From: Escherichia coli
GTDB lineage: Bacteria > Pseudomonadota > Gammaproteobacteria > Enterobacterales > Enterobacteriaceae
Strand: one strand, 5' to 3'
DNA: 64,000 nt
Assembly (NCBI RefSeq): GCF_009931435.1
Contig: NZ_CP043414.1
The notes under the pieces were generated by a model. The model was not told the DNA's origin, searched no databases, and saw only the letters and a list, made by a program, of their open reading frames with translations. A program made the translations under genes and the position numbers. The first letter of the stretch is position 1, and each line of letters begins with the position of its first letter. Positions 4,395 to 30,359 of this stretch are shown piece after piece.

Positions 4395-4470
4395 CATCTT
4401 GTAACTGTTAAATCAGGCAAGGCAATGTTTGAAGTAATTATTACTTCTGACGTGCCTTGCCTTTTTTTTT
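4395..4470 (+). promoter_or_regulatory. RAT-like element overlapping a rho-independent terminator (stem AGGCAAGGCA/TGCCTTGCCT 4415-4462, then T9) in leader of antiterminator-PTS operon
   Basis: Perfect 10-bp inverted repeat followed by 9 T; upstream GTAACTG..CAGGCAA resembles bgl RAT; sits directly 5' of a BglG-family gene. Confidence 0.5.
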
Positions 4471-4481
4471 GGAGCTATGGA

Positions 4482-5306: not shown

Positions 5307-5337
5307 TTATATATAACATTTATATGAGATAACCCGC

Positions 5338-6918
5338 ATGAAACAAAAGAAAGCCTGGAGTTTTTTTCAGAGCCTGGGAAAGGCATTTATGTATCCCATC
5401 GCTCTGCTAAGTGTATGTGGCATGATGTTAGGGCTAGGAAGTGGTTTAGCCAGCGATGATATGGCAAAATTAATTCCACTACTGGCTATTCCCGTAATTA
5501 AAACCATTCTTGATTTTATTGTTAGCCTTGGTTTGTTTGCCTTTGTCAATTTACCTGTATTGTTTGCGATAGCTATACCTCTGGGGTTATTAAAAGAGAA
5601 AGAGGATAAAGCCTATGGCGCTTTTTCTGGCTTAATTGGTTTCATGGCGATGCATCTGGGAACGAACTTTTATCTTAAACAACATGACTTATTGGTCGCT
5701 GCTGATCAAATGTCGACACATGGGCAAACCATTATTCTGGGAATCCAGTCCTACAATACCAGTGTGTTGGGTGGGATTATAGCAGGATTATTAGTCGCCA
5801 GTATGTATAAAAAGATCGTTAACTTACGTATTCCTGAATCATTAGGATTTTATAGTGGCCCACGCCTGGTGCCTATTATTACACTGATTGTGATGAGTGG
5901 ATTTGGTCTGATCATCCCTTTTATCTGGCCGCCATTTTTCAATCTTTTCATGCTCATTGGCCACTGGATTTCAACTTCCGGTCCTGTTGGCTATTTTTTC
6001 TATGCAGTCGCCGAACGCGTGACGATACCTTTTGGTTTAAATCACCTGGTGACGTCAGTTTTCCGCTTTACCCCCATCGGCGGATCGGCAGTGATCGGCG
6101 GCGAAGAGTATTATGGCACCCTGAACATGTTTATGGCGTACGTCAAAGAGAATGCGGTCATTCCGCTGGATTTGGCGGGGAAAATGGAACAGGGCAAACT
6201 GATGATTCAGTATGGTCTGGCTGGTGCCGCGCTGGCGATGTATCGCACTGCTCATGCTCAAAACAGAAAAGCTATCAAAGCATTGCTTATTTCCGGGGTG
6301 CTTACAGTCATTATTGGCGGCGTCAGCGAACCGATTGAGTTTCTGTTCTTATTTGTCAGTCCACTGCTGTTTGTCTTCCATGCCTTTATGAATGGATTCG
6401 CCAACATGGTCTTGCCATATATGGGCGTGAAGATGGGATTTACTGGCGATCTGATTCAATTTATTAGCTTTGGCGTATTGCGTGGCACAAGAACAGGTTG
6501 GCCAATAGCGGTGTGTGTCGAAGTGGCCTATTTCTTTATTTATTACTTTGTGTTCCGTTGGACTATTCTCAAATTTAACCTGATGACGGTAGGCCGTGAA
6601 GAGTCCAGTCCTGTCACGCTGAACGCTCATGAGGATACGGCTATAGCGGATATCCCAACGCTTGATAAATCAGAGCTGCAAGCAGCGGAGCAGATGGTTA
6701 AGGCACTTGGTGGTAAAGAGAATATTAAATCCCTGGATAATTGCGTAACTCGTTTACGTTTAACAATCGCAGATATGGGATTGATTGACGAGGCAGCAAT
6801 AAAAAGAGCTGGCGGAATTGCGGTTGTTAAACTTGATCAAAATACCCTACAAGTCATTATCGGTACTAAAGTCATCGCCTTGCGTCGGGATATGGATAAC
6901 TACATGGGGATATGCTGA
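5338..6918 (+). CDS. PTS EIICB component, glucose/maltose (MalX/PtsG) family; no EIIA domain
   Basis: Multi-TM EIIC region plus C-terminal EIIB with NCVTRLRL phosphorylation-site motif. Confidence 0.85.
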   Translation: MKQKKAWSFFQSLGKAFMYPIALLSVCGMMLGLGSGLASDDMAKLIPLLAIPVIKTILDFIVSLGLFAFVNLPVLFAIAIPLGLLKEKEDKAYGAFSGLIGFMAMHLGTNFYLKQHDLLVAADQMSTHGQTIILGIQSYNTSVLGGIIAGLLVASMYKKIVNLRIPESLGFYSGPRLVPIITLIVMSGFGLIIPFIWPPFFNLFMLIGHWISTSGPVGYFFYAVAERVTIPFGLNHLVTSVFRFTPIGGSAVIGGEEYYGTLNMFMAYVKENAVIPLDLAGKMEQGKLMIQYGLAGAALAMYRTAHAQNRKAIKALLISGVLTVIIGGVSEPIEFLFLFVSPLLFVFHAFMNGFANMVLPYMGVKMGFTGDLIQFISFGVLRGTRTGWPIAVCVEVAYFFIYYFVFRWTILKFNLMTVGREESSPVTLNAHEDTAIADIPTLDKSELQAAEQMVKALGGKENIKSLDNCVTRLRLTIADMGLIDEAAIKRAGGIAVVKLDQNTLQVIIGTKVIALRRDMDNYMGIC

Positions 6919-8093
6919 TGGATGTTTTTAATACTCCTATTTCCCGCAAAGGAACATATTGTACCCAATGGGACTTTTGCGAGGACAGATTTGGTGTAAA
7001 AGATGTATTACCATTCTCTATTTCAGATATGGATCTTCCGATACCGGAAGCTATCATCAGGGCATTAAAAAAACGTCTGGAACACCCGATTTTAGGGTAC
7101 AGCCGTTGGCAGCATGATGACTATCTGAATGCGATAGTCAATTGGTATCATCAACAATATAAAACTGAAATCAAACCAGAATGGATCACCTATAGCCCAA
7201 GCGTGATGTACTCCATTGCTAAAGCAATAGAGTTATTGACATCGCATGGTGATAATATTCTCGTTTTTACACCTGTCTATAATGCATTTTTTGATATAAT
7301 TAAACATAGCGAGAGAAATATTCTGACAGCCTCTTTGATTATAAAAAATGAGGGGGGCTACGCTATCAATTGGCAAGATTTTGATCTTAAGATTCAAAGC
7401 GCAAAGATGGTGTTATTATGTAATCCTCATAACCCGACAGGAACCGTCTGGTCGGAAGAAGATCTGCATAAAATCGCTGCAAGCTGTGCAAGACATAATG
7501 TCTGGTTATGTTCAGATGAAATTCACAGTGATTTTGTTTTTAATCGTAGCTTTACATCTGCGCTTAAAATAAAAAAAGAAAAAGTAGTGGTGTTTAATTC
7601 GATATCGAAGACATTTAATGTTCCTGCGCTAACAGGATCGTATATGATTTCAACTGACGATAATTTTAATCATGAGTTCAGAACGATATCAAGATATCGC
7701 GATTTTGTAAACTCCCCATCCGTACTGAATATAATTGCAACTATTATTGCCTATAACGAATGTGAGGGATGGTTAACGTCATTAAAGGCACATATTGCCT
7801 CTAACATTCAATTCACCCAGCAGTATCTGAACGAAAATACTCCAGAATTGATCGTAAGGCCTGCTGATGGTTGCTATTTTTCGTGGATAGATTGCTCTGC
7901 TATTGGTTATCCCTTTGATGAATTCTACAGTCGATTAATTCATGAAGGCAAAGTGGGCATTATGGCGGGGAATGTCTATGGAACGGAGGGGGAGGGCTAC
8001 CTTCGTCTGAACCTGGCCTGCGGTCGAGAAAAATTATATATGGGGCTTACGCGTCTTGCGAGTGTAATTAAAAATATTAATCAAGGAAAATAA
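6912..8093 (+). CDS. PLP-dependent C-S lyase / aminotransferase, MalY/PatB-like
   Basis: GTYCTQWDF..PFSISDMD..GYSRW and SISKTFN (PLP-Lys) motifs similar to E. coli MalY from memory; alternative start ATG 6918 overlaps PTS stop (TGATG). Confidence 0.8.
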   Translation: MLMDVFNTPISRKGTYCTQWDFCEDRFGVKDVLPFSISDMDLPIPEAIIRALKKRLEHPILGYSRWQHDDYLNAIVNWYHQQYKTEIKPEWITYSPSVMYSIAKAIELLTSHGDNILVFTPVYNAFFDIIKHSERNILTASLIIKNEGGYAINWQDFDLKIQSAKMVLLCNPHNPTGTVWSEEDLHKIAASCARHNVWLCSDEIHSDFVFNRSFTSALKIKKEKVVVFNSISKTFNVPALTGSYMISTDDNFNHEFRTISRYRDFVNSPSVLNIIATIIAYNECEGWLTSLKAHIASNIQFTQQYLNENTPELIVRPADGCYFSWIDCSAIGYPFDEFYSRLIHEGKVGIMAGNVYGTEGEGYLRLNLACGREKLYMGLTRLASVIKNINQGK

Positions 8094-8095
8094 AA

Positions 8096-8692
8096 ATGAA
8101 CAGCACGGATCTTATCCATCTCATTAAACATTTTATGCGTAACGAACATAAAGCAGTTGAAGAAGTTATTGATTCCCCCCTTTCGGAGGTCGCAAATTTA
8201 ATTAAAGTATTACAGTCTTGTCAGGGGAAAGTTGTTTTTATTGGTGTCGGTAAGTCCGGTATTATTGCCCGAAAACTCGCCGCAACATTTGCCAGCACTG
8301 GAACTCCCTCGTTTTTTGTTCACGGTACTGAAGCCGTACACGGCGATCTTGGGATGGTGGCGAAAGATGATGTTGTTATTCTTATTTCAAACAGTGGTGA
8401 GACGACAGAAATCCTGGCAACACTACCTAGTCTGAAAAAAATGGGTAATTATTTGATCTCCTTTACCCGCAGTCATCGCTCATCGCTTGCGATAAGTTGT
8501 GATTTATCCGTTGAAATTCCCGTAAAAAGTGAGGCGGATAATTTAGGTTTAGCGCCGTCATGCTCATCAACAGTCGTTCTGGTTGTTGGTGATGCGGTGG
8601 CGCTTGCGCTCTCCGAATTGAAAAAGTTTACTCGTGCTGATTTCGGCTTATATCATCCAGGAGGTGCGCTCGGTATTAAAGCAAACTCATAA
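8096..8692 (+). CDS. SIS-domain sugar-phosphate isomerase, KdsD/GutQ-like arabinose-5-phosphate isomerase lacking CBS domains
   Basis: GVGKSGIIARKLAATFASTGTPSFFVHGTEAVHGDLGM..HPGGALG closely resembles KdsD SIS domain; protein ends right after SIS domain (198 aa). Confidence 0.8.
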   Translation: MNSTDLIHLIKHFMRNEHKAVEEVIDSPLSEVANLIKVLQSCQGKVVFIGVGKSGIIARKLAATFASTGTPSFFVHGTEAVHGDLGMVAKDDVVILISNSGETTEILATLPSLKKMGNYLISFTRSHRSSLAISCDLSVEIPVKSEADNLGLAPSCSSTVVLVVGDAVALALSELKKFTRADFGLYHPGGALGIKANS

Positions 8693-8753
8693 TTTTAGAA
8701 TATAAAACAGTAACCGGTCACGCCATCTTTTGGGGTGGCGTTCATTGATGTGA

Positions 8754-9710
8754 GTGTCAGCTATGAAAAACGTTCTGGTCACCGTTCCCAGCTTTTCAGC
8801 GCGTTGTGTTTCTGCCAGCAAGCTGCTAAGAGAAAATCATTTTAACCTTATTATCAAGAATAATGTGGAGCATCTGGTTAAATCAGAATCCACAGTATTA
8901 CGAGAATCTATTTGCGCAGTCATTGCCGGAAAAGATTGTTATCAAGCGGATACGTTATCGCGACTACCAGGAGTGAAAATAATATCGAGATTCGGGACAG
9001 GGATTGATAATATTGATCTTCATACGGCTCGACAATCAGGTATTGTGGTCAATAATGCTGTTGGGATTAATTCAAATGCAGTCGCGGAATTTATCATTGG
9101 TCTTATTTTTGCGAGCATGAGAAATATCCCCGGTAGCTATCATGCGATGCAAAATGGTTATTGGGGCGAGTCGCATGGCTGCGAGTTACAAGGTAAACGT
9201 ATTGGCCTGCTTGGCTACGGCAATATTGGCAAAACACTGGCGAAAAGGTTATCTGGTTTTGATGTTGAGCTTTTAGCTTTTGACAAACAACCCGATTTCC
9301 AGGCCGCAGGCAAAGATGGAGTTCAGTTCGTATCAATTGAAGATATCTTTATGCAGTCTCATGTCATCATCGTTCTTTTGCCATTTTCTCCGGAGCTGGA
9401 GAACTTCATTAGTCATAAATATTTGTCGATGATGCGCAATGGTGCTCTTATCATCAACGCCGCAAGGGGAAAGTTGCTGGATGAGGGTGCTTTACTTCAG
9501 GTAATTGAAGAACGAAATGTTTTTGCAGCGCTGGATGTGTTTAGCTCTGAACCGCTAGCGCAATTTAGCCCATTGCTACATGCCAGGAATATCATTACAA
9601 CGCCGCATATTGCGGCCGCCACCGTTGAGTCATACCAGCAAACCGGGATATACGTTGCCAGGTCGATAATAGATTTCTTTGCAGGAAGGGAGATAAAAAA
9701 CGTGCTGTGA
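8754..9710 (+). CDS. D-isomer-specific 2-hydroxyacid dehydrogenase family protein (NAD-binding)
   Basis: GLLGYGNIGKTLAKRL Rossmann motif and overall family layout. Confidence 0.8.
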   Translation: MSAMKNVLVTVPSFSARCVSASKLLRENHFNLIIKNNVEHLVKSESTVLRESICAVIAGKDCYQADTLSRLPGVKIISRFGTGIDNIDLHTARQSGIVVNNAVGINSNAVAEFIIGLIFASMRNIPGSYHAMQNGYWGESHGCELQGKRIGLLGYGNIGKTLAKRLSGFDVELLAFDKQPDFQAAGKDGVQFVSIEDIFMQSHVIIVLLPFSPELENFISHKYLSMMRNGALIINAARGKLLDEGALLQVIEERNVFAALDVFSSEPLAQFSPLLHARNIITTPHIAAATVESYQQTGIYVARSIIDFFAGREIKNVL

Positions 9711-9771: not shown

Positions 9772-9788
9772 ATCAGCATCATAAGTGT

Positions 9789-9865
<77 letters not shown>

Positions 9866-9898
9866 TCACCGTACTGCTTTACTTCATCAAATTTTGAT

Positions 9899-9975
<77 letters not shown>

Positions 9976-10008
9976 TCACCGTACTGCTTTACTTCATCAA
10001 ATTTTAAT

Positions 10009-10085
<77 letters not shown>

Positions 10086-10293
10086 TCCGTGGATGCGCAC
10101 TATACTCCGCTCGCGTTTTCATGCAACCTTTTTTTTACCCAGATCACGGATTTGGTATGATTTTGAGCAAAAACAAATCACTAAAGCCTGTTTTTTGTGC
10201 AAAATTTGCGTCAGGGAGAGGCTGCTCATTTCATTAAACGCAGCGGTTTGTTATCTTCATTGCGCCTTATTTTTTAAACTGAAGAAGAGAACA

Positions 10294-17210: not shown

Positions 17211-17942
17211 TCAGGCTGTTACCAAAGAAGCCGCAACCTGGCGCTCATCAGAAATAATGTGCGTGACCTCATCCAGATGCCCGATGCGGGCTTCCCCTGA
17301 ACGATTAAATTTACTTTTATCAATCAATAACAACGATTGCGCGGCACGTTTTAATAGCATCGATTTGTAATCAGCGTTGATGGCATTGGAGTCCCACAGT
17401 GCACCGCTGCTATCGATCCCTTCACAAGAAAAAATAAACAGATCGATTTCCAGCGATTTAAGTTGGGAAATCAGCGAGGGATTGACGTAACAGCCATATT
17501 TGCGCTCAAGTGTGCCGCCGGAACTGATCAGTTGAATGCGTTCACGTTTACCGAGTTCATGGCAAATCGGATGGCTATTGGTGAAGACCTGAATGTCGAT
17601 GTCAGGCAACTGGCGTGCCAGATACCAGCAAGTTGAACTGGCGTCTAAGGCTATCACCATCCCTTCTTCAATCCACGCGAGCGCTTCGCGCGCGATATCT
17701 GCTTTATGCGCATAATGGCTTTTCAGCCGGATGTGAAAGGGATCGCCACTGTCTTGATTTTGACGGTGGATATATTTAGCGCGCCCATGATTGCGCAGAA
17801 TTTTACCCTGCGTCTGTAATTCATTGAGATCGCGACGAATGGTTTCTTTACTGACCTTTAGCTGTTCAGAGAGAGCTTCCGTGGTCAGGCTGGTATGGTT
17901 CAGCAGCAGGTCGACTATCGCTTGCTGGCGTGCCGCTTTCAT
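17211..17942 (-). CDS. fucR: DeoR-family L-fucose operon activator FucR
   Basis: MKAARQQAIVDLLLNHTSLTTEALSEQLKVSKETIRRDL; 243 aa. Confidence 0.9.
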   Translation of the reverse strand: MKAARQQAIVDLLLNHTSLTTEALSEQLKVSKETIRRDLNELQTQGKILRNHGRAKYIHRQNQDSGDPFHIRLKSHYAHKADIAREALAWIEEGMVIALDASSTCWYLARQLPDIDIQVFTNSHPICHELGKRERIQLISSGGTLERKYGCYVNPSLISQLKSLEIDLFIFSCEGIDSSGALWDSNAINADYKSMLLKRAAQSLLLIDKSKFNRSGEARIGHLDEVTHIISDERQVAASLVTA

Positions 17943-17999: not shown

Positions 18000-18422
18000 T
18001 TACGGTGTTACCCCTTTTTTTAAAAGAATATTCCCGTACTTCGCTCGTTCGCCTGTGATAACGATCGCAAAGGCTTTTTGCGCCCGCTCATAAAACGCAA
18101 AACGATTGATGCGGATGATGTCAGGACAGGGGGCTTGTAGTGAAAGCGCATTACGATAACGTCGTTCTACTTCAGGATCGAGAGTGTCACCTTCTACCGC
18201 CGCCATCATCACCAGCGGCGGTGCATAACTGTCCAGTTCAAATAACGGGATAATCGCCTGGAGTAAGTCGCTCACCAACAGGCCATCAGCACGGATCACC
18301 TGCGGTCCCATCGAATGGGCGGGAAAGTGAGCATCGGAAAAAATAATTTCATCTCCATGTCCCATCTCTGCCAGCACTTTCAATAGTTCGGGAGAAATTA
18401 ACGGCGAAATTGTTTTCAGCAT
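18000..18422 (-). CDS. fucU: L-fucose mutarotase FucU
   Basis: 140 aa RbsD/FucU family; synteny. Confidence 0.9.
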
Positions 18423-18423
18423 T

Positions 18424-19842
18424 TCACACTTCCTCTATAAATTCAGGTTCAGTTTGTGGGTAGAAATAACGGTACTGATAATGAATCTGCGCGCGAGCTT
18501 CTTCCGGGCTGTTAAATTCCCCTACGCCATACCAACCGAACAGCGCAGCTCCTGCGACGGTCGTTTCGGCGTCGTCGAGAACTTTTACCGGAATATCAAG
18601 CATATTGGCTTTAATCTGATTCCACAATGTGTTGCGACTTCCTCCACCTACTAACAATAATTCAGAGGCTTTAAAGTGCCCGATTTTTTCCAGCATCTGT
18701 AGATTGCGCTGTAATTGCGCGGTTAACCCTTCCAGCGCCGCGCGATAGAAATGTCCGCGCGTGGTATTGAGCGTCACTCCTTGCCAGCCAGCGTTCTGAC
18801 ACGACAATAAATCACACTGCATTTTCACGCCATCCGCGCCAGGCGCGATCAGACGAGCCTCTTCAATCAACATTTGCCAGGGCGTTTCAGTAGTCCAGAA
18901 CAGTTTTCTCACCCATTCCAGCACGCCGGATGCCAGCCATTGCATACCGGGGTTATACAATCCTGCCTGGCTATCCAGTTCGCAGGTGGAACCGGCGTAC
19001 TGACTTAGCAGTGAAGTATCAACCTGCGTACTGCGGACCATTAAAATTTCCCAGGTACCGGAAGAGAGCACGGGTTCATTTTGTTCGGCACCAGCACCAA
19101 AAAGGGCGAACTGGGTATCATGACCTGCAGAAATTACCGGTATGCCAACGGGTAAGCCGAGCATTGCTGCGGCGCTGTTCTGTAGCGTACCAATCTGTTC
19201 ACCCGCTTCCACCAGACGAGGGAAGAGTCGGCGTGGAATACCGGTGGCTTGTAAAATTTGCGGACTGAAATCGCGTTGCTGGATATCCAGCATCTGGCTG
19301 GTTCCGGCCATCGTGATATCAGTAGTGAATTCGCCGGTTAAACGGTGGTTAATCAGCGACGAAATAAAGAGCCAGGCGTGCGCGCGTTCCAGCAGTTGTG
19401 GATGATTTTCTTTCAACCACACCAATTTATATAACGTATTGAAACTAAAGGCTCCGACGCCAGAAATAGCCTGCAACTGCTGTGCGGAGATCAACCGTTC
19501 AATATTGTCCATTACCGCTGCTGTTCGCGGACATTTCCAGCTAATGATCGGATAGAGCAAATCGCCTTGCTTATCTACCAGAGCGCCATCCACACCAAAG
19601 GTGGTGACGGCGATACCGCGGATGTGGCATTCAGTCAGTTCACTATTGATTTGCCGACAGCAATCAGCAAAGCGTTGCAAAATGGCGTCTAAAGACCACT
19701 GGTGCCAGGTGTTGTTTTCCATCGCGATATCGCTGGCATTAGGCGTTGAGGCGCGGGCAACAATTTTTCCCTGCCGATTAACCGCGATGGCCCTGACATT
19801 GGTTGCGCCACAGTCGAGTACCAGGATAACTTCTTGTTTCAT
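18424..19842 (-). CDS. fucK: L-fuculokinase FucK (FGGY family)
   Basis: [22 protein letters not shown]-terminus; FGGY signature. Confidence 0.9.
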
Positions 19843-19950: not shown

Positions 19951-21726
19951 TTAACGCTTGTACAACGGACCGTAGTTCTGGCAAGCGCGGTAATCCAGGC
20001 CTTCAATATCCATGCCGTGCGCAGCCCAGGCAGAAGGACGATACACTTTGGTCTCTTCAACGTTGTGCATACATACCGGGATACGCAGCATGGAGGCGAG
20101 AGTGATAAAGTCTGCGCCAACGTGGCCGATGGTCAGAACCCCATGGTTAGCGCCCCAGTTCGCCATTACCGAGTACACATCCGTAAACGGCCCTTTACCG
20201 GTGAGGCGCGGTGCAAACCAGGTGGTTGGCCAGGTTGAGTTGGTGCGTTTGTTGAGGATGTCATGCACATCCTTCGGTAACTCAACGCTCCAGCCTTCCG
20301 CGATTTGCAGTACCGGTCCCAGGCCTTTGATGATGTTGACACGGGTCATGGTGAACGGGACACCGCCTTCAGTAAGGAAGCGGGAAGAGTAACCACCGCC
20401 ACGGAAATATTCGTGGATAGCCGGGCACCATTCGGTCGCGGCGAGGCAAGCGTCAGCCTCTTGCTGAGAGATTTCCCAGTGCGGCTTCATCGTCGGTTTA
20501 CCTTCGCTGTCGCGTTGTTTACAGGATCCGTCCAGCGCAGCAGAACCGGAGTTGATCAAGTGGATGATGCCGTGTTCTGCCAGTCCGTCCAGTTTATGCC
20601 CCGTTACTCGCTCAATTGCTTCTGGTGACCAGTAGGTACGCACATCGGCAAATACCTGAGCGGTACCGGTGAGCTGGTGGCCCATTAGCATTGCCACGCC
20701 GTTAAGACTGTCGTTTTCGGTCGCCACGACGAAGGGTTCACGCACGCCATTCCAGTCAAATGAACTGTTAAGGATCGCTTCGGCGGTGTCGCCATTGGGA
20801 TATTGATCGGTCCAGTGACGTTGTCCCTGGAAGCCCGCAGCGATGGCGTTGTAGCCAAGTGATTCTTCCACGCGACCAATATCGGCCAGTTTGCTGTTGC
20901 CTTGCATCATGTCGCGGATACACATCGCCATCAGTAAACTTTCGCGTAGAACTGCGCGGCTTTGCTCGGCATTGCGTTGATACTGTTTGTTATTTTCATC
21001 TTCGCCATAGCGGAAGTTTTTATCAGCCCAGGCCAGCGCCATTTCCAGTTCTGCTTCGTCGTAAATCTTCTGATCAATACGGCGACGCAGTTCGGTCATA
21101 TCCACCGCCTGGACTTTCATTCCCAGCCAGGATTCAAAGAAGTTGTGGTCAACGATGGAACCGGCGATCCCCATCGAAACGCCGCCCAGCGACAGATAGC
21201 TTTTACCTTTCATACTGGCGACTGCCAAACCGGCGCGGGCAAAGCGCAGCAGTTTTTCTTCAACGTCGGCAGGAATCGATGTGTCATCGGCATCCTGAAC
21301 GTCATGACCGTAAATGGAGAATGCCGGGATGCCTTTCTGGCTGTGAGCTGCCAGAGCCGCTGCCAGGTAAACAGCGCCGGGACGTTCAGTGCCGTTAAAG
21401 CCCCAAATGGCTTTCGGGCGGGTAGGGTCCATGTCAATGGTTTCACTGCCATAGCACCAGCAAGGCGTTACCGTAATGGTGAGGCCTACATTCTGGCTGC
21501 TGAATTTTTCTTCGCAAGCAGCAGCTTCAGCCATACCCGCGATACAGGTATCGGAAATGACACACTCGACGGCAGCTCCGCAGGCATGGCGCAGTTTCTC
21601 GGTCAGCAGTGCGGCCGTAGCTTTCGCCATATTCATTGTTTGTTCTTCAAGCGACTCACGAACACCCATGCGACGACCGTCAATAACCGGGCGGATACCA
21701 ATTTTCGGTAACGTATTAATTTTCAT
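19951..21726 (-). CDS. fucI: L-fucose isomerase FucI
   Basis: 591 aa; [19 protein letters not shown]-type N-terminus. Confidence 0.9.
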
Positions 21727-21808
21727 CAGGATTCCTCATCTCGCTTTATTGGCGCTCTGCTAAGGCGGAGAAAGGAAACCACCGAAGCAGTAGTATTGGT
21801 CATTATTT

Positions 21809-21824
21809 GCTAACTCGAGTTAGC
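21809..21824. promoter_or_regulatory. 16-bp perfect palindrome GCTAACTCGAGTTAGC (copy 1), candidate operator
   Basis: Exact self-complementary 16-mer with central CG, in fucI/ABC-operon divergent intergenic region. Confidence 0.35.
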
Positions 21825-21868
21825 TTAGGTTTGTAGGCTTTTTATGCACAACTTTTTTGTTGTTGAAA

Positions 21869-21884
21869 TGTGAGGGGCTTCACG
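21869..21884. promoter_or_regulatory. CRP-like site TGTGAGGGGCTTCACG
   Basis: 9/10 match to TGTGA-N6-TCACA half-sites. Confidence 0.3.
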
Positions 21885-22047
21885 AGAAGTGGTTAAAATA
21901 CGATCTCTGTCAAATTATTATTTAGCGGGATAAAAATAAATTTTACGTATAATCAAATGGTTATTAGATTTTAATGGTTATGCATCACAGTTTTAACTCA
22001 AATGATTTGGCTAATTTGTATACCTAAAATAGCTTTAAAAGGCGATC

Positions 22048-22063
22048 GCTAACTCGAGTTAGC
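22048..22063. promoter_or_regulatory. 16-bp perfect palindrome GCTAACTCGAGTTAGC (copy 2), candidate operator
   Basis: Identical to copy 1, 239 bp away, ~130 bp upstream of ABC ATPase start. Confidence 0.35.
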
Positions 22064-22195
22064 AAAATGCGAAGAATAGATTGATACGATGAATATTTAT
22101 TCAAAGGTTATTCGTATCACAGTGGAGATGGCTTTAGTAGCGACGTTTATGCCGTACTTCACATTTTCAGTTTCTGATTATTGAGGAAAGCTGCA

Positions 22196-23695
22196 ATGTC
22201 CGAAACATTTTTGCAAATGAAGCATATCACCAAACGCTTTCCTGGAGTGTTGGCGCTTAATGACGTGCAATTTACCCTACGCCGGGGCGAGGTTCATGCA
22301 TTATTAGGTGAAAATGGTGCAGGAAAATCTACATTAATGAAAATTTTGTCGGGGGTTTATCAACCTGATGAAGGCGAAATAATTTTTGAAGATAAATTAG
22401 TCTCATTTTCTGATCCGTTAAGTGCGCAAAACGTAGGTATTACTATTATTCACCAGGAATTTAATTTATTTCCCGAGCTTACAGTAGAAGAAAATATTTT
22501 TATCGGCAGGGAGTTTTGTAAAAAAAATCGCTGGCGTCTGGATGAGAAACAGCAACGCAAGGCGACGATTGAAATTTTGCAAAAATTAAATTTGGCGATC
22601 AAACCAGATACTCTGGTTGCCGACCTTACGGTAGCTCAACAACAGATGGTAGAAATTGCCAAGGCCATTTCGGTTAACGCCAGGATTCTCATTATGGATG
22701 AACCTACTGCGGCGTTAACAGAAACTGAAATTGAAAGCTTATTTCGCGTCACCCGGTTATTGAAAGAACAGGGGACCGGCATTGTGTATATATCCCACCG
22801 TCTGGAAGAGTTGGCGCTAATTGCCGACCGCGCGACTGTAATGCGTGATGGTCAGTACATCAGCACAGTAGATTATGAGTGCGTAAAAATCAGCGATCTG
22901 ATTGCCATGATGGTTGGTCGCGATTTAGGGAATATCTATCCCCGCCGCGAGGCCATACAGCAGCGGATGCCGGTTCTGGAGGTCAACGGACTGACGCGCA
23001 AAGGCGTACTGAACGATATTAATTTTACGCTTTATCGTGGCGAGATCCTCGGCTTTGCCGGACTGATGGGGGCAGGTCGTACTGAACTTGCGCGTGCGAT
23101 TTTTGGTGCGGACTCCATTGACAGCGGAACGCTAAAGTTAAATGGTAAGGAAACCGTTATTAAAGATATTTCGGATGCTATTCAGCAGGGAATTAGTTAC
23201 CTGACGGAAGACCGAAAAAAAGAAGGGTTGGCACTGAATTTATCTGTTGAACGAAATATTATGTTAGGAAATTACCCTGAGTATTCCGATCGTTTTGGGA
23301 ATGTCGATTCGCGTCGTTGCCAACAAACCAGTGAGGAACAGGTAAAAGCGTTAAGGATTAAAACGCCAAATCTTGAACAGGCTGCATTAAATCTAAGTGG
23401 AGGAAATCAGCAGAAAATTATAATTGCACGTTGGGTGTGTAAAGATACTGATATTTTAATCTTCGATGAACCCACTCGCGGCATTGATGTTGGCGCCAAA
23501 CTGGAAATCTATGAGTTAATGAATCGCCTGGTGGCAAAAGGGAAATCAATCATCATGATCTCCTCTGAATTGCCGGAGGTGTTAGGAATGTGCGACCGTA
23601 TTTTAGTGATGCGCAGTGGTCGAATTACTGGCGAACTTAGCGCAAATGAAGCGACACAAGAAAAAATCATGCAATACGCGACGTTAGAGGATTAA
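22196..23695 (+). CDS. Sugar ABC transporter ATP-binding protein, tandem ABC domains (RbsA/MglA-like)
   Basis: Two Walker A (GENGAGKST; GLMGAGRTE) and two signature motifs (LSGGNQQK); ATG 22196 with GAGGA RBS. Confidence 0.85.
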   Translation: MSETFLQMKHITKRFPGVLALNDVQFTLRRGEVHALLGENGAGKSTLMKILSGVYQPDEGEIIFEDKLVSFSDPLSAQNVGITIIHQEFNLFPELTVEENIFIGREFCKKNRWRLDEKQQRKATIEILQKLNLAIKPDTLVADLTVAQQQMVEIAKAISVNARILIMDEPTAALTETEIESLFRVTRLLKEQGTGIVYISHRLEELALIADRATVMRDGQYISTVDYECVKISDLIAMMVGRDLGNIYPRREAIQQRMPVLEVNGLTRKGVLNDINFTLYRGEILGFAGLMGAGRTELARAIFGADSIDSGTLKLNGKETVIKDISDAIQQGISYLTEDRKKEGLALNLSVERNIMLGNYPEYSDRFGNVDSRRCQQTSEEQVKALRIKTPNLEQAALNLSGGNQQKIIIARWVCKDTDILIFDEPTRGIDVGAKLEIYELMNRLVAKGKSIIMISSELPEVLGMCDRILVMRSGRITGELSANEATQEKIMQYATLED

Positions 23696-23698
23696 ATT

Positions 23699-24682
23699 AT
23701 GACTATCTCTGTAACCTCTCCAGACAGCAATAATAAGAAAATAAAGATAAATAAAGAACTTTTGATGCGCCTTGCGCCTCTTTTTAGCTTAATTATATTA
23801 GTGCTGTTTTTTAGTTTCAGCTCTCCCTTTTTCTTTAATACCGAAAATATCATGACGATTGCTCTGCAAACGTCGGTTATCGGCATTATGGCCATTGGGG
23901 TAACTTTCGTCATTATTACCGCGGGCATCGATCTTTCATTGGGTTCCGTGGTGGCTTTTTCTGGTGTCGCCGTGGGGATTTGCGCCACACTGGGCCTGCC
24001 GCTGCCAGTGTGTATTATTGCCGGTGTTTTAGCCGGTGGAATGTGCGGCTATGTGAATGGTTTGTTGGTCACTAAAATGACTATTCCACCGTTTATCGCT
24101 ACCTTGGGCCTGATGATGTCCGTCAGAGGTATCAATATGGTGATGACCGACGGGCGCGCCATCTATTTTGCCGATTACCCGATGTTCAAAACGCTCGCTC
24201 AGGGACGCTTGTTTGATGTGCTGCCTTATCCTGTTTTCTACCTGGTCATTGTGGCGCTTGTCGGCGCTTACATCCTGAAGAAAACGGTTATTGGTCGCTA
24301 TGTCTATGCCGTAGGCAGTAATGAAGTTGCTGCTCATCTTTCTGGTATTAAAGTTCAGCGCGTGAAAATTTTCGTCTATGCCTTCTGTGGTTTATTAACC
24401 GGGATTGCGGGTGTCATTCTCGCTTCTCGTCTCAACTCCGGACAACCGACGGTGGGTGTGGGTTATGAGCTGGAAGCTATTGCTGCGGTAGTGATCGGCG
24501 GAACCAGCTTAATGGGCGGTATTGGCACTATTGGCGGCACAATCATTGGCGCTTTCATTATGAGTGTACTGAAAAATGGCCTCAATTTAATGGGGGTCTC
24601 TCAGTTCTGGCAAATGGTCGCGATGGGCGTAGTTGTGGTCGCTGCCGTTTACCTCGATACATTACGCAAAAAGATTCGTTGA
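23699..24682 (+). CDS. Sugar ABC transporter permease (RbsC/AraH family)
   Basis: ~10 TM segments, family layout. Confidence 0.85.
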   Translation: MTISVTSPDSNNKKIKINKELLMRLAPLFSLIILVLFFSFSSPFFFNTENIMTIALQTSVIGIMAIGVTFVIITAGIDLSLGSVVAFSGVAVGICATLGLPLPVCIIAGVLAGGMCGYVNGLLVTKMTIPPFIATLGLMMSVRGINMVMTDGRAIYFADYPMFKTLAQGRLFDVLPYPVFYLVIVALVGAYILKKTVIGRYVYAVGSNEVAAHLSGIKVQRVKIFVYAFCGLLTGIAGVILASRLNSGQPTVGVGYELEAIAAVVIGGTSLMGGIGTIGGTIIGAFIMSVLKNGLNLMGVSQFWQMVAMGVVVVAAVYLDTLRKKIR

Positions 24683-24755
24683 CTTAGGCTCCCTGTTTTA
24701 TCGGGAAACAACTGCCCTGACGTTAAGGGTGATTCACTCAGAACGGAGTACAACA

Positions 24756-25706
24756 ATGAAAACCAGGCATTTTATCTATGCGTTATCTCTGCTGGCTTGC
24801 GTAAGTTCCAGCGCACTGGCGAAGGATTTAAATCTTCCGGTTGTTAGTAAAGGTTTCCAACATGAATTCTGGCAAACCGTAAAAATGGGGACTGAAGCTG
24901 CGGCTAAAGAGTTGGGGGATAAAACCAGCTATGTTGGCCCGGCTGATGAAACGCAAATAGCCGAGCAAATTCAGTTAGTCGAAAATGCGATGGCGCAGAA
25001 ACCGAATGGCTTGCTTCTGGCAGCCCTCGACGCGAATGCGCTCGCCCCACTGGTAGAAACGGCAAATTCACGCGGTATCAAAGTGGTGACCTTTGATTCA
25101 GGCATCAATTCAGACATTCCGGTGAGTTTTGTCGCCACCAATAACCGTAAAGCAGGTGCTCAGGCAGCTGATGCCTTAGCTGCGCAGGTAAATAATAAAG
25201 GGAAAGTTGGGATTATCGCGCACGTTGCAGGAACATCTTCCGCTATTGAACGCTCGGAAGGCTTCATGGAGCGTATGAAAGAAAAATATCCTGACATTAA
25301 AGTCTTACCCGTTCAGTACAGCGATGGTGACCCGCAAAAAGCGATGGATAAAACTATCGATATGATTCAGGCCAATCCCGATCTTGCTGGGATCTATGGC
25401 ACCAATGAAGGTTCAACGCTCGGGGTGGCGAATGCCATTGATAGCCAGAATCTGAAAGGTAAGGTGAAGGTCATTGGTTTTGATAGTACGGAAGCGATTA
25501 TTAACTTCCTGAAGAACGGGGTCATTCAGGGCTTTGTTGTTCAGGATGCATACCAGATTGGCTATCAAGGGATCAAAACGTTGAACGCGGCCCTTTCGGG
25601 GCAAGCCGTTGAAAAAGAGATCGATATTCCCGTGAAATTTGTTAATGCCGAGAATATTAACACGCCAGAAATCGACAAACTCCTGCACCCATTCGGTAAG
25701 AAATAA
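24756..25706 (+). CDS. Periplasmic sugar-binding protein (RbsB-like, type I PBP) with signal peptide
   Basis: MKTRHFIYALSLLACVSSSALA signal peptide; GGAG RBS; ORF-track upstream extension overlaps permease and is rejected. Confidence 0.85.
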   Translation: MKTRHFIYALSLLACVSSSALAKDLNLPVVSKGFQHEFWQTVKMGTEAAAKELGDKTSYVGPADETQIAEQIQLVENAMAQKPNGLLLAALDANALAPLVETANSRGIKVVTFDSGINSDIPVSFVATNNRKAGAQAADALAAQVNNKGKVGIIAHVAGTSSAIERSEGFMERMKEKYPDIKVLPVQYSDGDPQKAMDKTIDMIQANPDLAGIYGTNEGSTLGVANAIDSQNLKGKVKVIGFDSTEAIINFLKNGVIQGFVVQDAYQIGYQGIKTLNAALSGQAVEKEIDIPVKFVNAENINTPEIDKLLHPFGKK

Positions 25707-25759
25707 AAAAATTGGGGATGAATTCTCATCCCCGTTATCTCCAGCGTCAGGGAGGCTTT

Positions 25760-27340
25760 ATGCACAACGGTTATTTTCTCGGTGTCGATGTCGGATCGGC
25801 CAGTGTCAGGGCAGGCGTTTACAGTGCCAGTGGCCACAGGCTGGCATTCGCTACTGCGCCCGTCTCCCAGTTTCGCCCTGGCGGCGAGCGTGTCGAACAG
25901 TCTTCGGCAGAGATCTGGCAACAAGTTTGTAAAACGGTGAAAGAGGCGACAGCTTTGGCAGGCATCCCCATTTCCGCAATTCGCTCACTGGGTTTTGACG
26001 CTACCTGCTCGCTGGTTGTTCTTGATGAACAAGGCCAGGGTTTAGCGGTTTCGTCCGGTGGATCTGCGAATCACGACATTATTATGTGGATGGATCATCG
26101 TGCAACTGTCGAGACGGCGCAGATTAACGCAACGAAGGATCCCGTATTGCGCTACGTTGGCGGCGAAGTGAGCGTCGAGATGGAGTTACCAAAGTTACGT
26201 TGGTTGAAGACGCATCTACCGCAAACCTGGCAGGCCGCTCATCGCTTTTTCGATCTGGCGGATTTTCTGGTCTGGAAAGCAACAGGGCGAGACGTCGCGG
26301 GATTGTGCACGCTAACGTGTAAATGGAATTATCTGGCTCATGAACAACGCTTTAGCCATAGCTTACTGGAATCGGTAGACCTGACCGACATGCTCGAAAG
26401 AATTCCCGCCGAAATTCTTCCGCCTGGTGCTGCCGTGGGAACTTTAACTGCCACAGCTGCTGAAGAATTAGGATTAACGACCAATGTTATCGTGGCCAGT
26501 GGTTTGATTGATGCCCATGCCGGTGGCATGGCGCTGGCTGGCGCGCAGCCATCAGGAACGCTGGCATTGATAAGCGGAACGTCGAATTGCCACATGTTGT
26601 GCAGTGAAAAAGAAATATTCACCCCTGGCGTCTGGGGGCCATACTGGTCGGCCATGTTGCCAAATTACTGGCTAACTGAAGGCGGGCAAAGCGCCGCAGG
26701 GGCGCTGGTGGAGTGGACGCTTCAGGAGTCCGGGGCAAGCGCAAATCTTTTTAACAAGGCGCAGCAACGCGGGTGTCATCCGATTCAACTGATTAATGAA
26801 TGGGTAGCCGCCCTGGAAGCTAACGAGTCAGAACCCACACGAAATTTACATGTGCTTGCCGATCATCACGGCAACCGTTCGCCACGAGCGCGGCCCGATG
26901 CCAGAGGCAGTGTTTATGGCTTAACACTGGAGCGTGGTGAAAATCAGCTCGCGCGGCTTTATCTTGCGACTTTACAGGCAATAGCCTTTGGCACCAGACA
27001 TATTATTGAAACTCTGCGGGAAAATGGGCATACCATTACCCGATTAACATTATGTGGTGGTGCAACGCACAACCCTTTATGGCTACGCGAATATGCAGAC
27101 GTGACAGGTTGCGATATCCACCTGATGCAAGAAGAAGATGCCGTTACGTTGGGCGCAGCAATTAGCGGCGCTGTTGCCAGCGGAGCATGGGGGGATTTTA
27201 CATCTGCGTGTAAAGCAATGGTTGAAGCCGGAGAGGTTATTCAGGTAAATCCACAACGCCGTGAATTTTTAGAGCGTAAATACCGGGTTTACCTGACGCT
27301 TTGGGAGCAACAACAGGCGGTTAACCAACTGATGCAATAA
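25760..27340 (+). CDS. FGGY-family carbohydrate (pentulose-type) kinase
   Basis: GVDVGSASVRAGV N-terminal FGGY motif; ~526 aa; GGAGG RBS. Confidence 0.8.
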   Translation: MHNGYFLGVDVGSASVRAGVYSASGHRLAFATAPVSQFRPGGERVEQSSAEIWQQVCKTVKEATALAGIPISAIRSLGFDATCSLVVLDEQGQGLAVSSGGSANHDIIMWMDHRATVETAQINATKDPVLRYVGGEVSVEMELPKLRWLKTHLPQTWQAAHRFFDLADFLVWKATGRDVAGLCTLTCKWNYLAHEQRFSHSLLESVDLTDMLERIPAEILPPGAAVGTLTATAAEELGLTTNVIVASGLIDAHAGGMALAGAQPSGTLALISGTSNCHMLCSEKEIFTPGVWGPYWSAMLPNYWLTEGGQSAAGALVEWTLQESGASANLFNKAQQRGCHPIQLINEWVAALEANESEPTRNLHVLADHHGNRSPRARPDARGSVYGLTLERGENQLARLYLATLQAIAFGTRHIIETLRENGHTITRLTLCGGATHNPLWLREYADVTGCDIHLMQEEDAVTLGAAISGAVASGAWGDFTSACKAMVEAGEVIQVNPQRREFLERKYRVYLTLWEQQQAVNQLMQ

Positions 27341-27404
27341 GACAAAAGTTGAAAATACTTTTATGATTGTGATTTGACGTCTGGATGTTAACTGGGAAAT
27401 ACCT

Positions 27405-28403
27405 ATGGCTAAAACAGTAGAGCAGATAGCCAGCGACCTGAATTTATCGGTTACGACCGTGCGACTGGTGCTAAATGGAAAAGCGGAACAATATCGAATC
27501 AGCGTCAAAACCCAAACGCGTATCAATGAATATGTTGAACGCTATGGTTATATCATTAATCATTCCGCTCGCAGCCTTAAGCTTAACAAAACTGATACAT
27601 TAGGGTTGATTGTTCCCAACATATCCAACGTCTTTTTTGCTACGCTGGCAGAAAAACTCGAACAACGCTGTCGACGTTCCGGATATCAACTTACAATCAG
27701 TTGCACTTATGATGATGTTGACTATGAAAATAAATTGACGAAAGCATTTATCGCACGAAATGTAGATGGTCTTTTTATTGTTCCTTCGACGCTGGAAAAT
27801 CAGCAGCATCATTTACGCAAAATTCGTAAGCCAATGGTTTTACTCGATCGTGATTTTAAATATACCGATAACGCATTGGTAGAGAGTAATAATATTTCTG
27901 GCGGAGAAAAGCTGACGCAAAATATTCTTGAGGCCGGGCAGGCTCCAGTATGGTTTTTGCTGGGAGATGCCGGTTTGCCGAGTATCAGCGATCGTCTGAC
28001 AGGTTATTTGAATGCGTTGGCAAAAAAAGGGATTACCCATCGCGATTGGGTGCGGGAAGGTCCGGTAAATACTCCGGAAGGCGGCTATGTCATTATGGAA
28101 AAACTCATTGAAGAGCAGGGATGTCCGCAGGCATTTATCGCCTCGTCTTTACCTGTGCTTGAAGGCGCTGTCCGCGCGATTCGCGACCGTCTTGGCGCTG
28201 TACCGCCAGAAATCAATATTGGCACTTTCGATGAACATCCTATGCTGGGATTTCTCGCCAACAATGTCTGGTCAATGCAGCAGGATGAAAATGCCTGGGC
28301 AGAAAAAGCGTTCGAAATGATGTTAAGCGCGATCGAAGAAAGACCAGTAAAAAAAACAGTTAAAGTAGAAATGAAATTAATTAAGCGCATAAGAAAAAAA
28401 TAA
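27405..28403 (+). CDS. LacI-family transcriptional regulator
   Basis: N-terminal HTH (TVEQIASDLNLSVTTVRLVLNG) plus periplasmic-binding-like effector domain. Confidence 0.85.
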   Translation: MAKTVEQIASDLNLSVTTVRLVLNGKAEQYRISVKTQTRINEYVERYGYIINHSARSLKLNKTDTLGLIVPNISNVFFATLAEKLEQRCRRSGYQLTISCTYDDVDYENKLTKAFIARNVDGLFIVPSTLENQQHHLRKIRKPMVLLDRDFKYTDNALVESNNISGGEKLTQNILEAGQAPVWFLLGDAGLPSISDRLTGYLNALAKKGITHRDWVREGPVNTPEGGYVIMEKLIEEQGCPQAFIASSLPVLEGAVRAIRDRLGAVPPEINIGTFDEHPMLGFLANNVWSMQQDENAWAEKAFEMMLSAIEERPVKKTVKVEMKLIKRIRKK

Positions 28404-28535
28404 TAATCGCCAAAAGATATCAGGCTACTGAACAATGATATTCAGTGGCCTCCCCTTACTAAAAATAACCCCGTCTTCATTTGCGGTGCTGTTTTACGCA
28501 ACAAGGCGAGCTGAAACTGTATCTGGAGAATAGAA

Positions 28536-29183
28536 ATGGAAAGAACACGTTTATCCCGTGAAATAATTGAAACCTGTCTGGAAATGACGCGCCTTGGGTT
28601 AAATCAGGGGACAGCGGGGAATGTCAGCACACGTTTTGAAAACGGCATGTTGATTACTCCCAGCGGTATTCCTTATGAAAGAATGACGGAGAATATGATT
28701 GTCTATGTTGATGGCAACGGCAAATACGAAGAAGGTAAGATTCCTTCCAGCGAATGGCGTTTCCATATGGCGGCCTATCAAAGCAGACCGGATGCCAACG
28801 CGGTTGTTCACAATCATGCCGTTCATTGCACGGCAGTTTCCATTCTTAACCGACCGATCCCTGCTATTCACTACATGATTGCGGCGGCTGGCGGTAATTC
28901 TATTCCTTGCGCGCCTTATGCGACCTTTGGAACTCGGGAACTTTCTGAACATGTTGCGCTGGCTCTCAAAAATCGTAAGGCAACTTTGTTACAACATCAT
29001 GGGCTTATCGCTTGTGAGGTGAATCTGGAGAAAGCGTTATGGCTGGCGCATGAAGTTGAAGTGCTGGCGCAACTTTACCTGACGACCCTGGCGATTACGG
29101 ACCCGGTGCCAGTGCTGAGCGATGAAGAGATTGCCGTAGTGCTGGAGAAATTCAAAACCTACGGGTTACGGATTGAAGAGTAA
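28536..29183 (+). CDS. fucA: L-fuculose-1-phosphate aldolase
   Basis: Near-complete match to FucA from memory (..GTAGNVS..HNHAVHCTAVSILNR..); 215 aa. Confidence 0.9.
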   Translation: MERTRLSREIIETCLEMTRLGLNQGTAGNVSTRFENGMLITPSGIPYERMTENMIVYVDGNGKYEEGKIPSSEWRFHMAAYQSRPDANAVVHNHAVHCTAVSILNRPIPAIHYMIAAAGGNSIPCAPYATFGTRELSEHVALALKNRKATLLQHHGLIACEVNLEKALWLAHEVEVLAQLYLTTLAITDPVPVLSDEEIAVVLEKFKTYGLRIEE

Positions 29184-29207: not shown

Positions 29208-30359
29208 ATGATGGCTAACAGAATGATTCTGAACGAAACGGCATGGTTTGGTCGGGGGGCTGTTGGAGCTTTAACCGATGAGGTGAAACGCCGTGGTTAT
29301 CAGAAGGCACTGATCGTCACCGATAAAACGCTGGTGCAATGCGGCGTGGTGGCGAAAGTGACCGATAAGATGGATGCTGCAGGGCTGGCATGGGCGATTT
29401 ACGATGGTGTAGTGCCCAACCCGACAATTACTGTCGTCAAAGAAGGGCTTGGTGTATTCCAGAGTAGCGGTGCGGATTACCTGATCGCTATTGGTGGTGG
29501 TTCTCCACAGGACACGTGTAAAGCGATTGGCATCATCAGCAACAACCCGGAATTCGCCGATGTGCGCAGTCTGGAAGGGCTTTCCCCGACCAATAAACCC
29601 AGTGTACCGATTCTGGCAATCCCCACCACAGCAGGCACTGCGGCAGAAGTGACCATTAACTATGTGATCACTGACGAAGAAAAACGACGCAAGTTCGTTT
29701 GTGTTGATCCGCATGATATCCCGCAGGTGGCATTTATTGACGCTGACATGATGGATGGTATGCCGCCTGCGCTGAAAGCCGCGACGGGTGTCGATGCGCT
29801 CACTCATGCTATTGAGGGGTATATTACCCGTGGCGCGTGGGCGCTAACCGATGCACTGCACATTAAAGCGATTGAAATCATTGCTGGGGCGCTGCGAGGA
29901 TCGGTTGCTGGTGATAAGGATGCCGGAGAAGAAATGGCGCTCGGGCAGTATGTTGCGGGTATGGGCTTCTCGAATGTTGGGTTAGGGTTGGTGCATGGTA
30001 TGGCGCATCCACTGGGCGCGTTTTATAACACGCCACACGGTGTTGCGAACGCCATCCTGTTACCGCATGTCATGCGCTATAACGCTGACTTTACCGGTGA
30101 GAAGTACCGCGATATCGCGCGCGTTATGGGCGTGAAAGTGGAAGGTATGAGCCTGGAAGAGGCGCGTAATGCCGCTGTTGAAGCGGTATTTGCTCTCAAC
30201 CGTGATGTCGGTATTCCGCCACATTTGCGTGATGTTGGTGTACGCAAGGAAGACATTCCGGCACTGGCGCAGGCGGCTCTGGACGATGTTTGTACCGGTG
30301 GCAACCCGCGTGAAGCAACGCTTGAGGATATTGTAGCGCTTTACCATACCGCCTGGTAA
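29208..30359 (+). CDS. fucO: L-1,2-propanediol oxidoreductase (lactaldehyde reductase)
   Basis: Fe-ADH family; MANRMILNETAWFGRGAVGAL N-terminus. Confidence 0.9.
   Translation: MMANRMILNETAWFGRGAVGALTDEVKRRGYQKALIVTDKTLVQCGVVAKVTDKMDAAGLAWAIYDGVVPNPTITVVKEGLGVFQSSGADYLIAIGGGSPQDTCKAIGIISNNPEFADVRSLEGLSPTNKPSVPILAIPTTAGTAAEVTINYVITDEEKRRKFVCVDPHDIPQVAFIDADMMDGMPPALKAATGVDALTHAIEGYITRGAWALTDALHIKAIEIIAGALRGSVAGDKDAGEEMALGQYVAGMGFSNVGLGLVHGMAHPLGAFYNTPHGVANAILLPHVMRYNADFTGEKYRDIARVMGVKVEGMSLEEARNAAVEAVFALNRDVGIPPHLRDVGVRKEDIPALAQAALDDVCTGGNPREATLEDIVALYHTAW

Follow-up and report, generated by a model that had tools for sequence, protein, structure and literature searches.

The fuc locus in a 64,000-nucleotide stretch of Escherichia coli DNA (contig NZ_CP043414.1 of assembly GCF_009931435.1; the whole stretch is referred to as the window) is the known alternative form carried by E. 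coli B and BL21, an L-fucose/D-arabinose (dar) cluster that has already been described. It comprises a minus-strand group (fucR-fucU-fucK-fucI), a module of five plus-strand genes and plus-strand fucA-fucO, as identified from the map of open reading frames (ORFs) and NCBIfam models. The five module genes are all intact and encode an ABC ATPase, a permease, a periplasmic sugar-binding protein (SBP), an FGGY kinase (DarK) and a LacI-family regulator. We are confident, though not certain, that this is a B-type fuc allele in which an ABC importer for L-fucose/D-arabinose, a metabolic branch through DarK and control by the LacI-type regulator go together as an old polymorphism.

A preliminary description of the window had reported that fuc genes flank this module, and that an ABC transporter, a second FGGY kinase and a LacI-family regulator stand in for fucP; both statements were borne out, and the control region of fucP is replaced as well. 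Its claim that fucP is missing between fucI and fucA holds as well, and tblastn with K-12 FucP gave no match anywhere in the 64-kb window (best E = 1.6). The arrangement had been presented there as unrecognised, whereas it is well known: it is the B/BL21 allele, which has been described in print and which about 7% of the complete E. coli genomes carry. The anatomy of the edges, the relatives in other species and the paired palindromes of the control region are what the present analysis adds to the published descriptions.

Extent, frequency and relatives of the B-type segment

Base-by-base comparison with K-12 delimits a divergent, B-type segment of 7,037 bp (21712..28748, no strand) whose K-12 counterpart measures 2,123 bp, a net gain of 4,914 bp. 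The K-12 DNA lost comprises the 5' third of fucA, the fucA/fucP control region, fucP itself and the fucP-fucI spacer up to fucI codon 5. At the left edge (around 21712) the fucI mismatches to K-12 cluster at gene nucleotides 8-15 (codons 3-5) and the next one is at nucleotide 204; at the right edge, 58 of the 66 fucA mismatches fall in 28542-28748. Nucleotides 1-213 of fucA are about 74% identical to K-12 (B/ABC-type) and the sequence from about 28772 on is 98-99% identical, a jump that makes fucA a chimeric gene. The 546-bp K-12 fucA/fucP control region, with its FucR and CRP sites, is absent as a whole: positions 5669-7571 of K-12 locus L001 gave no blastn match in the window, and comparison with K-12 revealed no leftover control sequence in either intergenic region. 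One GGTCAT motif similar to a repeated K-12 motif was not counted as evidence. The K-12-type neighbours rlmM and xni are retained around the locus. The event is a 7.0-kb allelic replacement with its ends inside fucI and fucA, not the clean insertion of five genes that had been pictured.

The segment was found by megablast in 384 of 5,426 complete E. coli genomes, in every case chromosomal, single-copy and between fucI and fucA. A query restricted to the divergent segment itself gave full-length matches in 381 of the 5,426 genomes (about 7%) at 98.4-99.1% identity. The carriers come from humans, livestock, wildlife, water and soil, and among the matches listed are, at 98.6%, the B-lineage strains C3029, ATCC 11303, BL21, BL21(DE3) and T7 Express. 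The K-12 fucP gene is present in 5,039 of the 5,426 genomes. Since 5,039 and 384 nearly add up to the total (5,423 of 5,426, by summing the counts and not by direct cross-tabulation), fucP and the module look like alternative alleles. As in the B-type cluster, the window contains additional kinase-bearing DNA between fucA and fucI at the chromosomal fuc locus. The annotation of BL21(DE3) gives fucO, fucA (split), the LacI-family gene, FGGY kinase, SBP, permease and ATPase, followed by fucI-fucK-fucU-fucR, with fucP absent.

Elsinghorst and Mortlock (1988/1994) reportedly mapped darK between fucA and fucI in E. coli B and estimated the additional DNA at about 5.2 kb. Under the name 'variant 2', Saif et al. 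(2023, PMC10221146) describe a fuc operon with an ABC transporter in place of fucP; they count it in 50 of 1,058 E. coli genomes, BL21 serving as their example, and among 40 clinical isolates 3 were fucP-negative and ABC-positive, all three fermenting fucose. The gene ECD_02649, between fucA and fucI in BL21, has been assigned to D-arabinose catabolism, and growth on D-arabinose is observed in BL21 and not in K-12 (Kim et al., PMC6150544); the genes for D-arabinose utilisation are listed as B-specific by Yoon et al. (2012, PMC3446290). An Escherichia clade of D-ribulokinases, 'previously defined as DarK' and inserted within the L-fucose locus, is described by Cottam et al. (2025, PMC12307932), who cite Elsinghorst & Mortlock 1994. 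The preliminary description had named two observations that would overturn it, an intact fucP elsewhere and a documented module widespread at this position; the module is indeed widespread at this exact site and documented, and a fucP elsewhere in the window was not found.

The GC content is 46.8% in the module, 51.6% in fucR-fucI and 51.7% in fucA-fucO, which agrees with the earlier impression, gained by eye, of an AT-richer module; the intergenic region between fucI and the ABC genes has 35.8% GC. This lower GC content, along with the presence of the module in only about 7% of genomes, could suggest a foreign island recently acquired between fucI and fucA with deletion of fucP, an explanation to which we give very little credence. 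The ends of the segment show no integrase, transposase, other mobility gene, tRNA or direct repeat and lie inside homologous genes (fucI codons 3-5 and fucA nucleotide 213). The module is invariably chromosomal, single-copy and at one site, and its variation within E. coli is 1-2%, as in the flanks. The DNA shares 88-92% identity with Escherichia whittamii over the module and 82-93% over the flanking genes, and with Citrobacter the value is 72-82% for module and flanks alike, so that the divergence of the module parallels that of the flanking core genes. The recent-island hypothesis was rejected on these junction and divergence data. Since the divergence of the module tracks species distance in parallel with the flanks, the allele fits an old polymorphism shared with Citrobacter and other Escherichia, which would imply long vertical residence.

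A scan of species-representative genomes with the SBP, which has close homologues outside E. coli, yielded 79 loci, and the fuc and module proteins were mapped on 43 of them. The full order, fucR-U-K-I diverging from ATPase-permease-SBP-darK-regulator-fucA-fucO, was identified in about 12 Citrobacter species. The same order is found in E. whittamii and, in some cases without a detected fucR or full-length darK, in Enterobacter hormaechei subsp. hoffmannii, Huaxiibacter, Pseudenterobacter, Lelliottia, Pluralibacter, Buttiauxella, Atlantibacter, Serratia sp. DD3, Affinibrenneria and 'Enterobacteriaceae RIT691'. Full-length darK was not detected in the loci of C. amalonaticus, C. sedlakii and Buttiauxella, and fucR was not detected within the stretches fetched from E. 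whittamii, Enterobacter, Atlantibacter and RIT691. Citrobacter and E. whittamii have the ABC-type layout as their standard fuc locus, so it is doubtful in which direction the replacement went, that is, which allele came first.

The ABC importer and the DarK kinase

The start codons of the module genes were taken from the RefSeq annotation of strain R32_14_1F, which is 99.1% identical; three of the starts given in the preliminary description were longest-ORF TTG codons and are replaced by 22196, 24756 and 25760, its ORF positions being otherwise correct. The ATPase (22196..23695, plus strand, 499 aa) has two fused ABC domains of the CUT2 type and scores 550-586 bits with the RbsA, XylG and AraG models, below their equivalog cut-offs. 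The permease (23699..24682, plus strand, 327 aa) belongs to the BPD_transp_2 family and the SBP (24756..25706, plus strand, 316 aa) is RbsB/AlsB-like. The Pfam domains identified in the orthologues are ABC_tran (twice), BPD_transp_2 and Peripla_BP_4, and the set has the composition of a CUT2 importer: a double ABC ATPase of about 500 aa, a single BPD_transp_2 permease and a Peripla_BP_4 SBP. The AlphaFold2 (AF2) model of the SBP has a predicted local distance difference test score (pLDDT) of 84 and its fold matches that of sugar SBPs.

The best NCBIfam names for the transporter and regulator proteins are RbsA, RbsC, RbsB/AlsB and Cra, and the databases call them by generic names or 'ribose transport system'. 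From these names the five genes could be taken for an operon for ribose or another pentose, functionally unrelated to the fuc genes and merely located beside them. The RbsACB equivalog cut-offs were not reached, however (RbsA 586 bits, cut-off 745; RbsC 304, cut-off 398; RbsB 127, cut-off 337), nor were those for AlsB and Cra; with scores so far below the cut-offs, the transporter and regulator proteins are paralogues of the ribose and Cra systems. The gene order with fucI/K/U/A is also kept across more than 35 species, in several rearranged forms, and the region between fucI and the ABC genes holds the shared palindromes. An unrelated pentose operon is the least probable of the explanations considered, and we hardly regard it as credible.

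The kinase is the only module protein above a curated cut-off. The gene darK (25760..27340, plus strand, 526 aa) encodes an FGGY pentulose kinase of the D-ribulokinase family, with 534.7 bits for TIGR01315, 'FGGY family pentulose kinase' (cut-off 408.7), over residues 22-536 of the 542-aa ORF, whereas its scores with the NCBIfam models for AraB ribulokinase and fuculokinase are below their cut-offs. No other kinase gene lies between fucA and fucI, as in BL21, where the corresponding gene is ECD_02649. A patch of darK at about 26100-26700 is 94-97% identical both to BL21 and to a near-identical goat strain, compared with 99-100% in the adjoining module DNA, which suggests a small recombination patch.

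A pathway can be proposed from these assignments. The SBP and the CUT2-type ABC importer would replace the MFS permease FucP and bring in L-fucose and its structural analogue D-arabinose. FucU and FucI would convert L-fucose to L-fuculose and D-arabinose to D-ribulose; for FucI of K-12 these conversions are established. L-fuculose would take the usual route through FucK, FucA and FucO. D-ribulose would be phosphorylated by DarK, probably to D-ribulose-5-phosphate, the site of phosphorylation being deduced from the kinase family, and would enter the pentose-phosphate pathway. The kinase most likely sends D-ribulose derived from D-arabinose into that pathway, bypassing FucK, FucA and FucO. It had been suggested that the extra kinase serves a second sugar and feeds it into FucA/FucO; the first part agrees with this assignment and the second does not.

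The flanking genes are typical fuc genes, FucI, FucK, FucU, FucA and FucO each scoring above its own equivalog cut-off. On the minus strand, fucR (17211..17942) encodes the DeoR-family L-fucose activator, is intact, matches the R32_14_1F and BL21 annotations and is 98-99% identical to K-12 at the DNA level; fucU (18000..18422) encodes L-fucose mutarotase (NF011949, 306.6 bits, cut-off 141); fucK (18424..19842, start as in the RefSeq annotation) encodes L-fuculokinase (TIGR02628, 843 bits, cut-off 470.9); and fucI (19951..21726) encodes L-fucose/D-arabinose isomerase (TIGR01089, 1246 bits). On the plus strand, the chimeric fucA (28536..29183) encodes L-fuculose-1-phosphate aldolase (TIGR01086, 426.7 bits) and fucO (29208..30359) lactaldehyde reductase (NF007911, 753 bits).

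The LacI-type regulator and the control region

The regulator (27405..28403, plus strand, 332 aa) scores 235 bits with TIGR02417 (cut-off 390) and is nearest to Cra/FruR: its best PDB relatives are Cra structures and it has full-length matches to LacI, Cra and PurR, in keeping with a LacI-family repressor built of an N-terminal HTH and a sugar-binding core. The Cra/FruR equivalog cut-off was not reached (217.4 bits, cut-off 385) and the regulator is therefore not a Cra orthologue. Downstream of the gene (28404-28535; equivalents in L005 and L006) a short hairpin is present in E. coli, RIT691 and Atlantibacter, but its sequence differs among the three.

Two identical, perfect 16-bp palindromes, GCTAACTCGAGTTAGC, to which no strand is assigned, lie in the 469 bp that separate fucI from the ATPase gene: O1 (21809..21824), 83 bp upstream of the fucI start codon, and O2 (22048..22063), 133 bp upstream of the ATPase start codon and 239 bp from O1. 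No further match with up to three mismatches was found elsewhere in the window, where 0.14 are expected by chance, and there is no copy upstream of fucA. The palindromes are conserved in about 30 species. Both are present in the enterobacterial loci examined, with 0-2 changes and 238-240 bp apart; the exceptions are two Atlantibacter-like loci (L033 and L034) whose second copy has more than three mismatches. Even palindromes centred on CG are typical LacI-family operators, and the Vibrio and Psychromonas loci with a LacI homologue have the palindrome while those with only a DeoR-type FucR lack it. O1 and O2 are probably operators of the LacI-type regulator.

A CRP-like site, TGTGAGGGGCTTCACG (21869..21884, no strand), lies between the divergent promoters, with one mismatch to the consensus. 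By itself it is not significant (1.8 expected by chance); its half-sites TGTGA and TCACG are invariant in an alignment of 16 species, and it was kept on account of this conservation. Read by eye, O1 possibly overlaps a -10 element of fucI, with the CRP-like site near -61.5, and O2 may lie at about +11 to +26 from a promoter of the ABC operon. A scan with consensus promoters and terminators was not used, the counts being no higher than in shuffled sequence. In the proposed mechanism the LacI-type regulator would probably repress the divergent promoters of fucIKUR and of ABC-darK-regulator(-fucAO) through O1 and O2, which would overlap the promoters or lie just downstream of them, with the CRP site in between. 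The fucR gene is intact though the known target sequence of K-12 FucR, in the fucA/fucP intergenic region, is absent from the B-type allele.

A third palindrome was identified about 9.7 kb from the ABC genes in Lelliottia sp. WAP21 (L027, 13778-13793) and in Huaxiibacter chinensis (L025, 17168-17183). In Lelliottia it is located about 95 bp upstream of a DUF2961 gene that is followed by a GPH sugar symporter gene. DUF2961 corresponds to family GH172, which includes alpha-D-arabinofuranosidases and alpha-D-fructofuranosidases, and the regulon may therefore reach the use of D-arabinofuranosides or fructofuranosides. The position of this copy upstream of a DUF2961/GH172 gene is also a hint that the regulator responds to D-arabinose.

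A broader picture can be drawn from these elements, and we propose it only tentatively, since we find it somewhat harder to accept than to doubt. The LacI-type regulator, and not FucR, would be the master switch of B-type fuc loci, acting through two operators whose spacing of 239 bp is fixed across Enterobacteriaceae; its regulon would include, in some genera, a GH172 enzyme (D-arabinofuranosidase family) and a glycoside symporter; and the allele would be of ancient origin and serve to scavenge D-arabinose, for instance from glycans that contain D-arabinan, with E. coli maintaining it opposite the FucP allele as a long-lived polymorphism. In E. coli B the inducers were reportedly, in the work of Elsinghorst and Mortlock from 1988/1994, free L-fucose and D-arabinose and not phosphorylated intermediates (fuculose-1-phosphate). 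If true, a LacI-type switch of this kind would account for such induction by the free sugars.

Substrate of the importer and comparison with known systems

The predicted ligands of the SBP are L-fucose and/or D-arabinose, and over 35 species show linkage of its gene to fucI/K/U/A. The main rival to import of both sugars is that the ABC system is restricted to D-arabinose (or D-ribulose or a related pentose), which it supplies to DarK; L-fucose would enter by another, low-affinity route, so that B-type strains would in effect be fucose-permease-negative. We consider this rival unlikely. A K-12 delta-fucP strain still grows slowly on fucose, with a growth pattern like that of BL21 (PMC10221146), and REL606 is negative on L-fucose (PMC3446290). 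Several loci of Vibrio, Psychromonas and relatives (L042, L045 and L046) combine LacI, DarK, ABC genes and a FucU-like mutarotase and lack fucI/K/A. The third palindrome of Lelliottia and Huaxiibacter points the same way, standing in Lelliottia before genes for a GPH symporter and a member of GH172, a family with D-arabinofuranosidases.

On the other side, all three fucP-negative, ABC-positive clinical isolates fermented fucose (PMC10221146), and an IS1 element in fucA accounts for the weak fucose growth of B strains. That insertion alone would explain weak growth, so that fucose growth of BL21 is uninformative on the transporter and the comparison of K-12 with BL21 in PMC10221146 is confounded. 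In BL21(DE3) the IS1 occupies L004 15847-16616, equivalent to 28967-28975 of the window, and the 9-bp overlap of the flanking alignments fits a target duplication. The best evidence for L-fucose import comes from loci where the ABC genes lie inside a fucI-K-U-A(-O) operon as its sole transporter, as in Sodalis, Acerihabitans and several Vibrio; in Vibrio DW001, Vibrio 99-8-1, V. mimicus, Sodalis and Acerihabitans these operons are also darK-less. A 531-aa FGGY gene located after the fuc operon of Vibrio DW001 was rejected as darK, being only 24% identical.

Several Vibrio, one Psychromonas and one unclassified gammaproteobacterial locus contain a LacI homologue (41-45%), a DarK homologue (49-52%) and a paralogous ABC set, with or without fuc genes. 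Some vibrios have two paralogous ABC copies (L038 and L042 in Vibrio sp. 99-8-1; L046/L047 in Vibrio sp. UBA2441), one with a DeoR-type FucR and fucIKUAO and the other with the LacI homologue, the DarK homologue and a FucU-like mutarotase. These look like separate fucose and D-arabinose systems that would have been merged in one locus in Enterobacteriaceae. In Vibrio sp. 99-8-1 the two SBP paralogues share 82% identity, and each of them is 68-69% identical to the E. coli SBP; being equally distant from it, they do not settle the substrate.

Several observations weigh against a B-type allele that imports both sugars under LacI-type control. The best solved relatives of the SBP (4RXT, 4WUT and 5DKV) are only 30-36% identical to it in structure-based alignments, and the ligand in 4WUT is D-fucose, the enantiomer of L-fucose. 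Growth of BL21 on fucose is poor (PMC10221146). The loci of Sodalis, Acerihabitans and Affinibrenneria have the palindrome with no LacI homologue within 10 kb, so that the pairing of operator and regulator is not airtight. Finally, FucR is kept both here and in Citrobacter, and presumably still acts. Inference of the ligand from the solved structures was dropped in view of the 30-36% identity; 4RXT, whose title ends before the ligand, presumably holds D-arabinose.

As a discovery the locus has little weight, given that the allele is that of BL21, among the most used of strains, and has been mapped, sequenced and surveyed. The residual interest is in the substrate of the transporter, the predicted operators and the generic database names, since public annotation still gives such names to all five module proteins. 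Clear names for them (DarK, fucose/D-arabinose ABC importer) and a record of the predicted operators would be of use for metabolic models and for studies of fucose signalling in the gut.

Elsewhere in the window, a block of five genes (4425-9710) is located between amiC and three tRNA-Met genes (about 9788-10087). Its products are a LicT/BglG-type antiterminator, a MalX-like phosphotransferase system (PTS) IIBC component, a PatB/MalY C-S lyase, a 198-aa SIS-only KpsF/GutQ-like isomerase and a 2-hydroxyacid/phosphoglycerate dehydrogenase. The block is absent at that site from BL21, which is K-12-like there, and present in strain R32_14_1F; its last gene is frameshifted in R32_14_1F and an intact 318-aa ORF in the window.

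The closest known system is the fuc locus of BL21(DE3), with the same five genes, order, orientation, site and chimeric fucA 5' end, and 97-100% identity to the module DNA in 300-bp windows; its fucA holds an IS1 whereas that of the window is intact. The fuc loci of Citrobacter and E. whittamii share the gene order and both palindromes at the same spacing, with protein identities to the window of 79-97% and 87-99%, respectively. Compared with the K-12-type regulon (fucPIKUR/fucAO), with which it shares 97-99% identity in fucI, fucK, fucU, fucR, fucO and the 3' two-thirds of fucA, the window lacks fucP and the K-12 control region, has a different 5' third of fucA and gains the ABC importer, DarK and the LacI-type regulator. 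The ribose transporter RbsACB has the same families and domain layout as the importer, whose proteins are paralogues and not orthologues, and Cra/FruR is of the same family and domain layout as the regulator. The Aau transporter of enterohaemorrhagic E. coli (EHEC) is a CUT2-type ABC importer, as is the one in the window (Cottam et al. 2025, PMC12307932). The Rbl D-ribulose locus of Citrobacter rodentium combines a CUT2-type ABC importer with an FGGY D-ribulokinase and sends D-ribulose to the pentose-phosphate pathway (PMC12307932); Rbl has a KpsF-like isomerase and no fuc genes, whereas the DarK inserted in the fuc locus forms a separate clade in another genomic context, set apart by that description.

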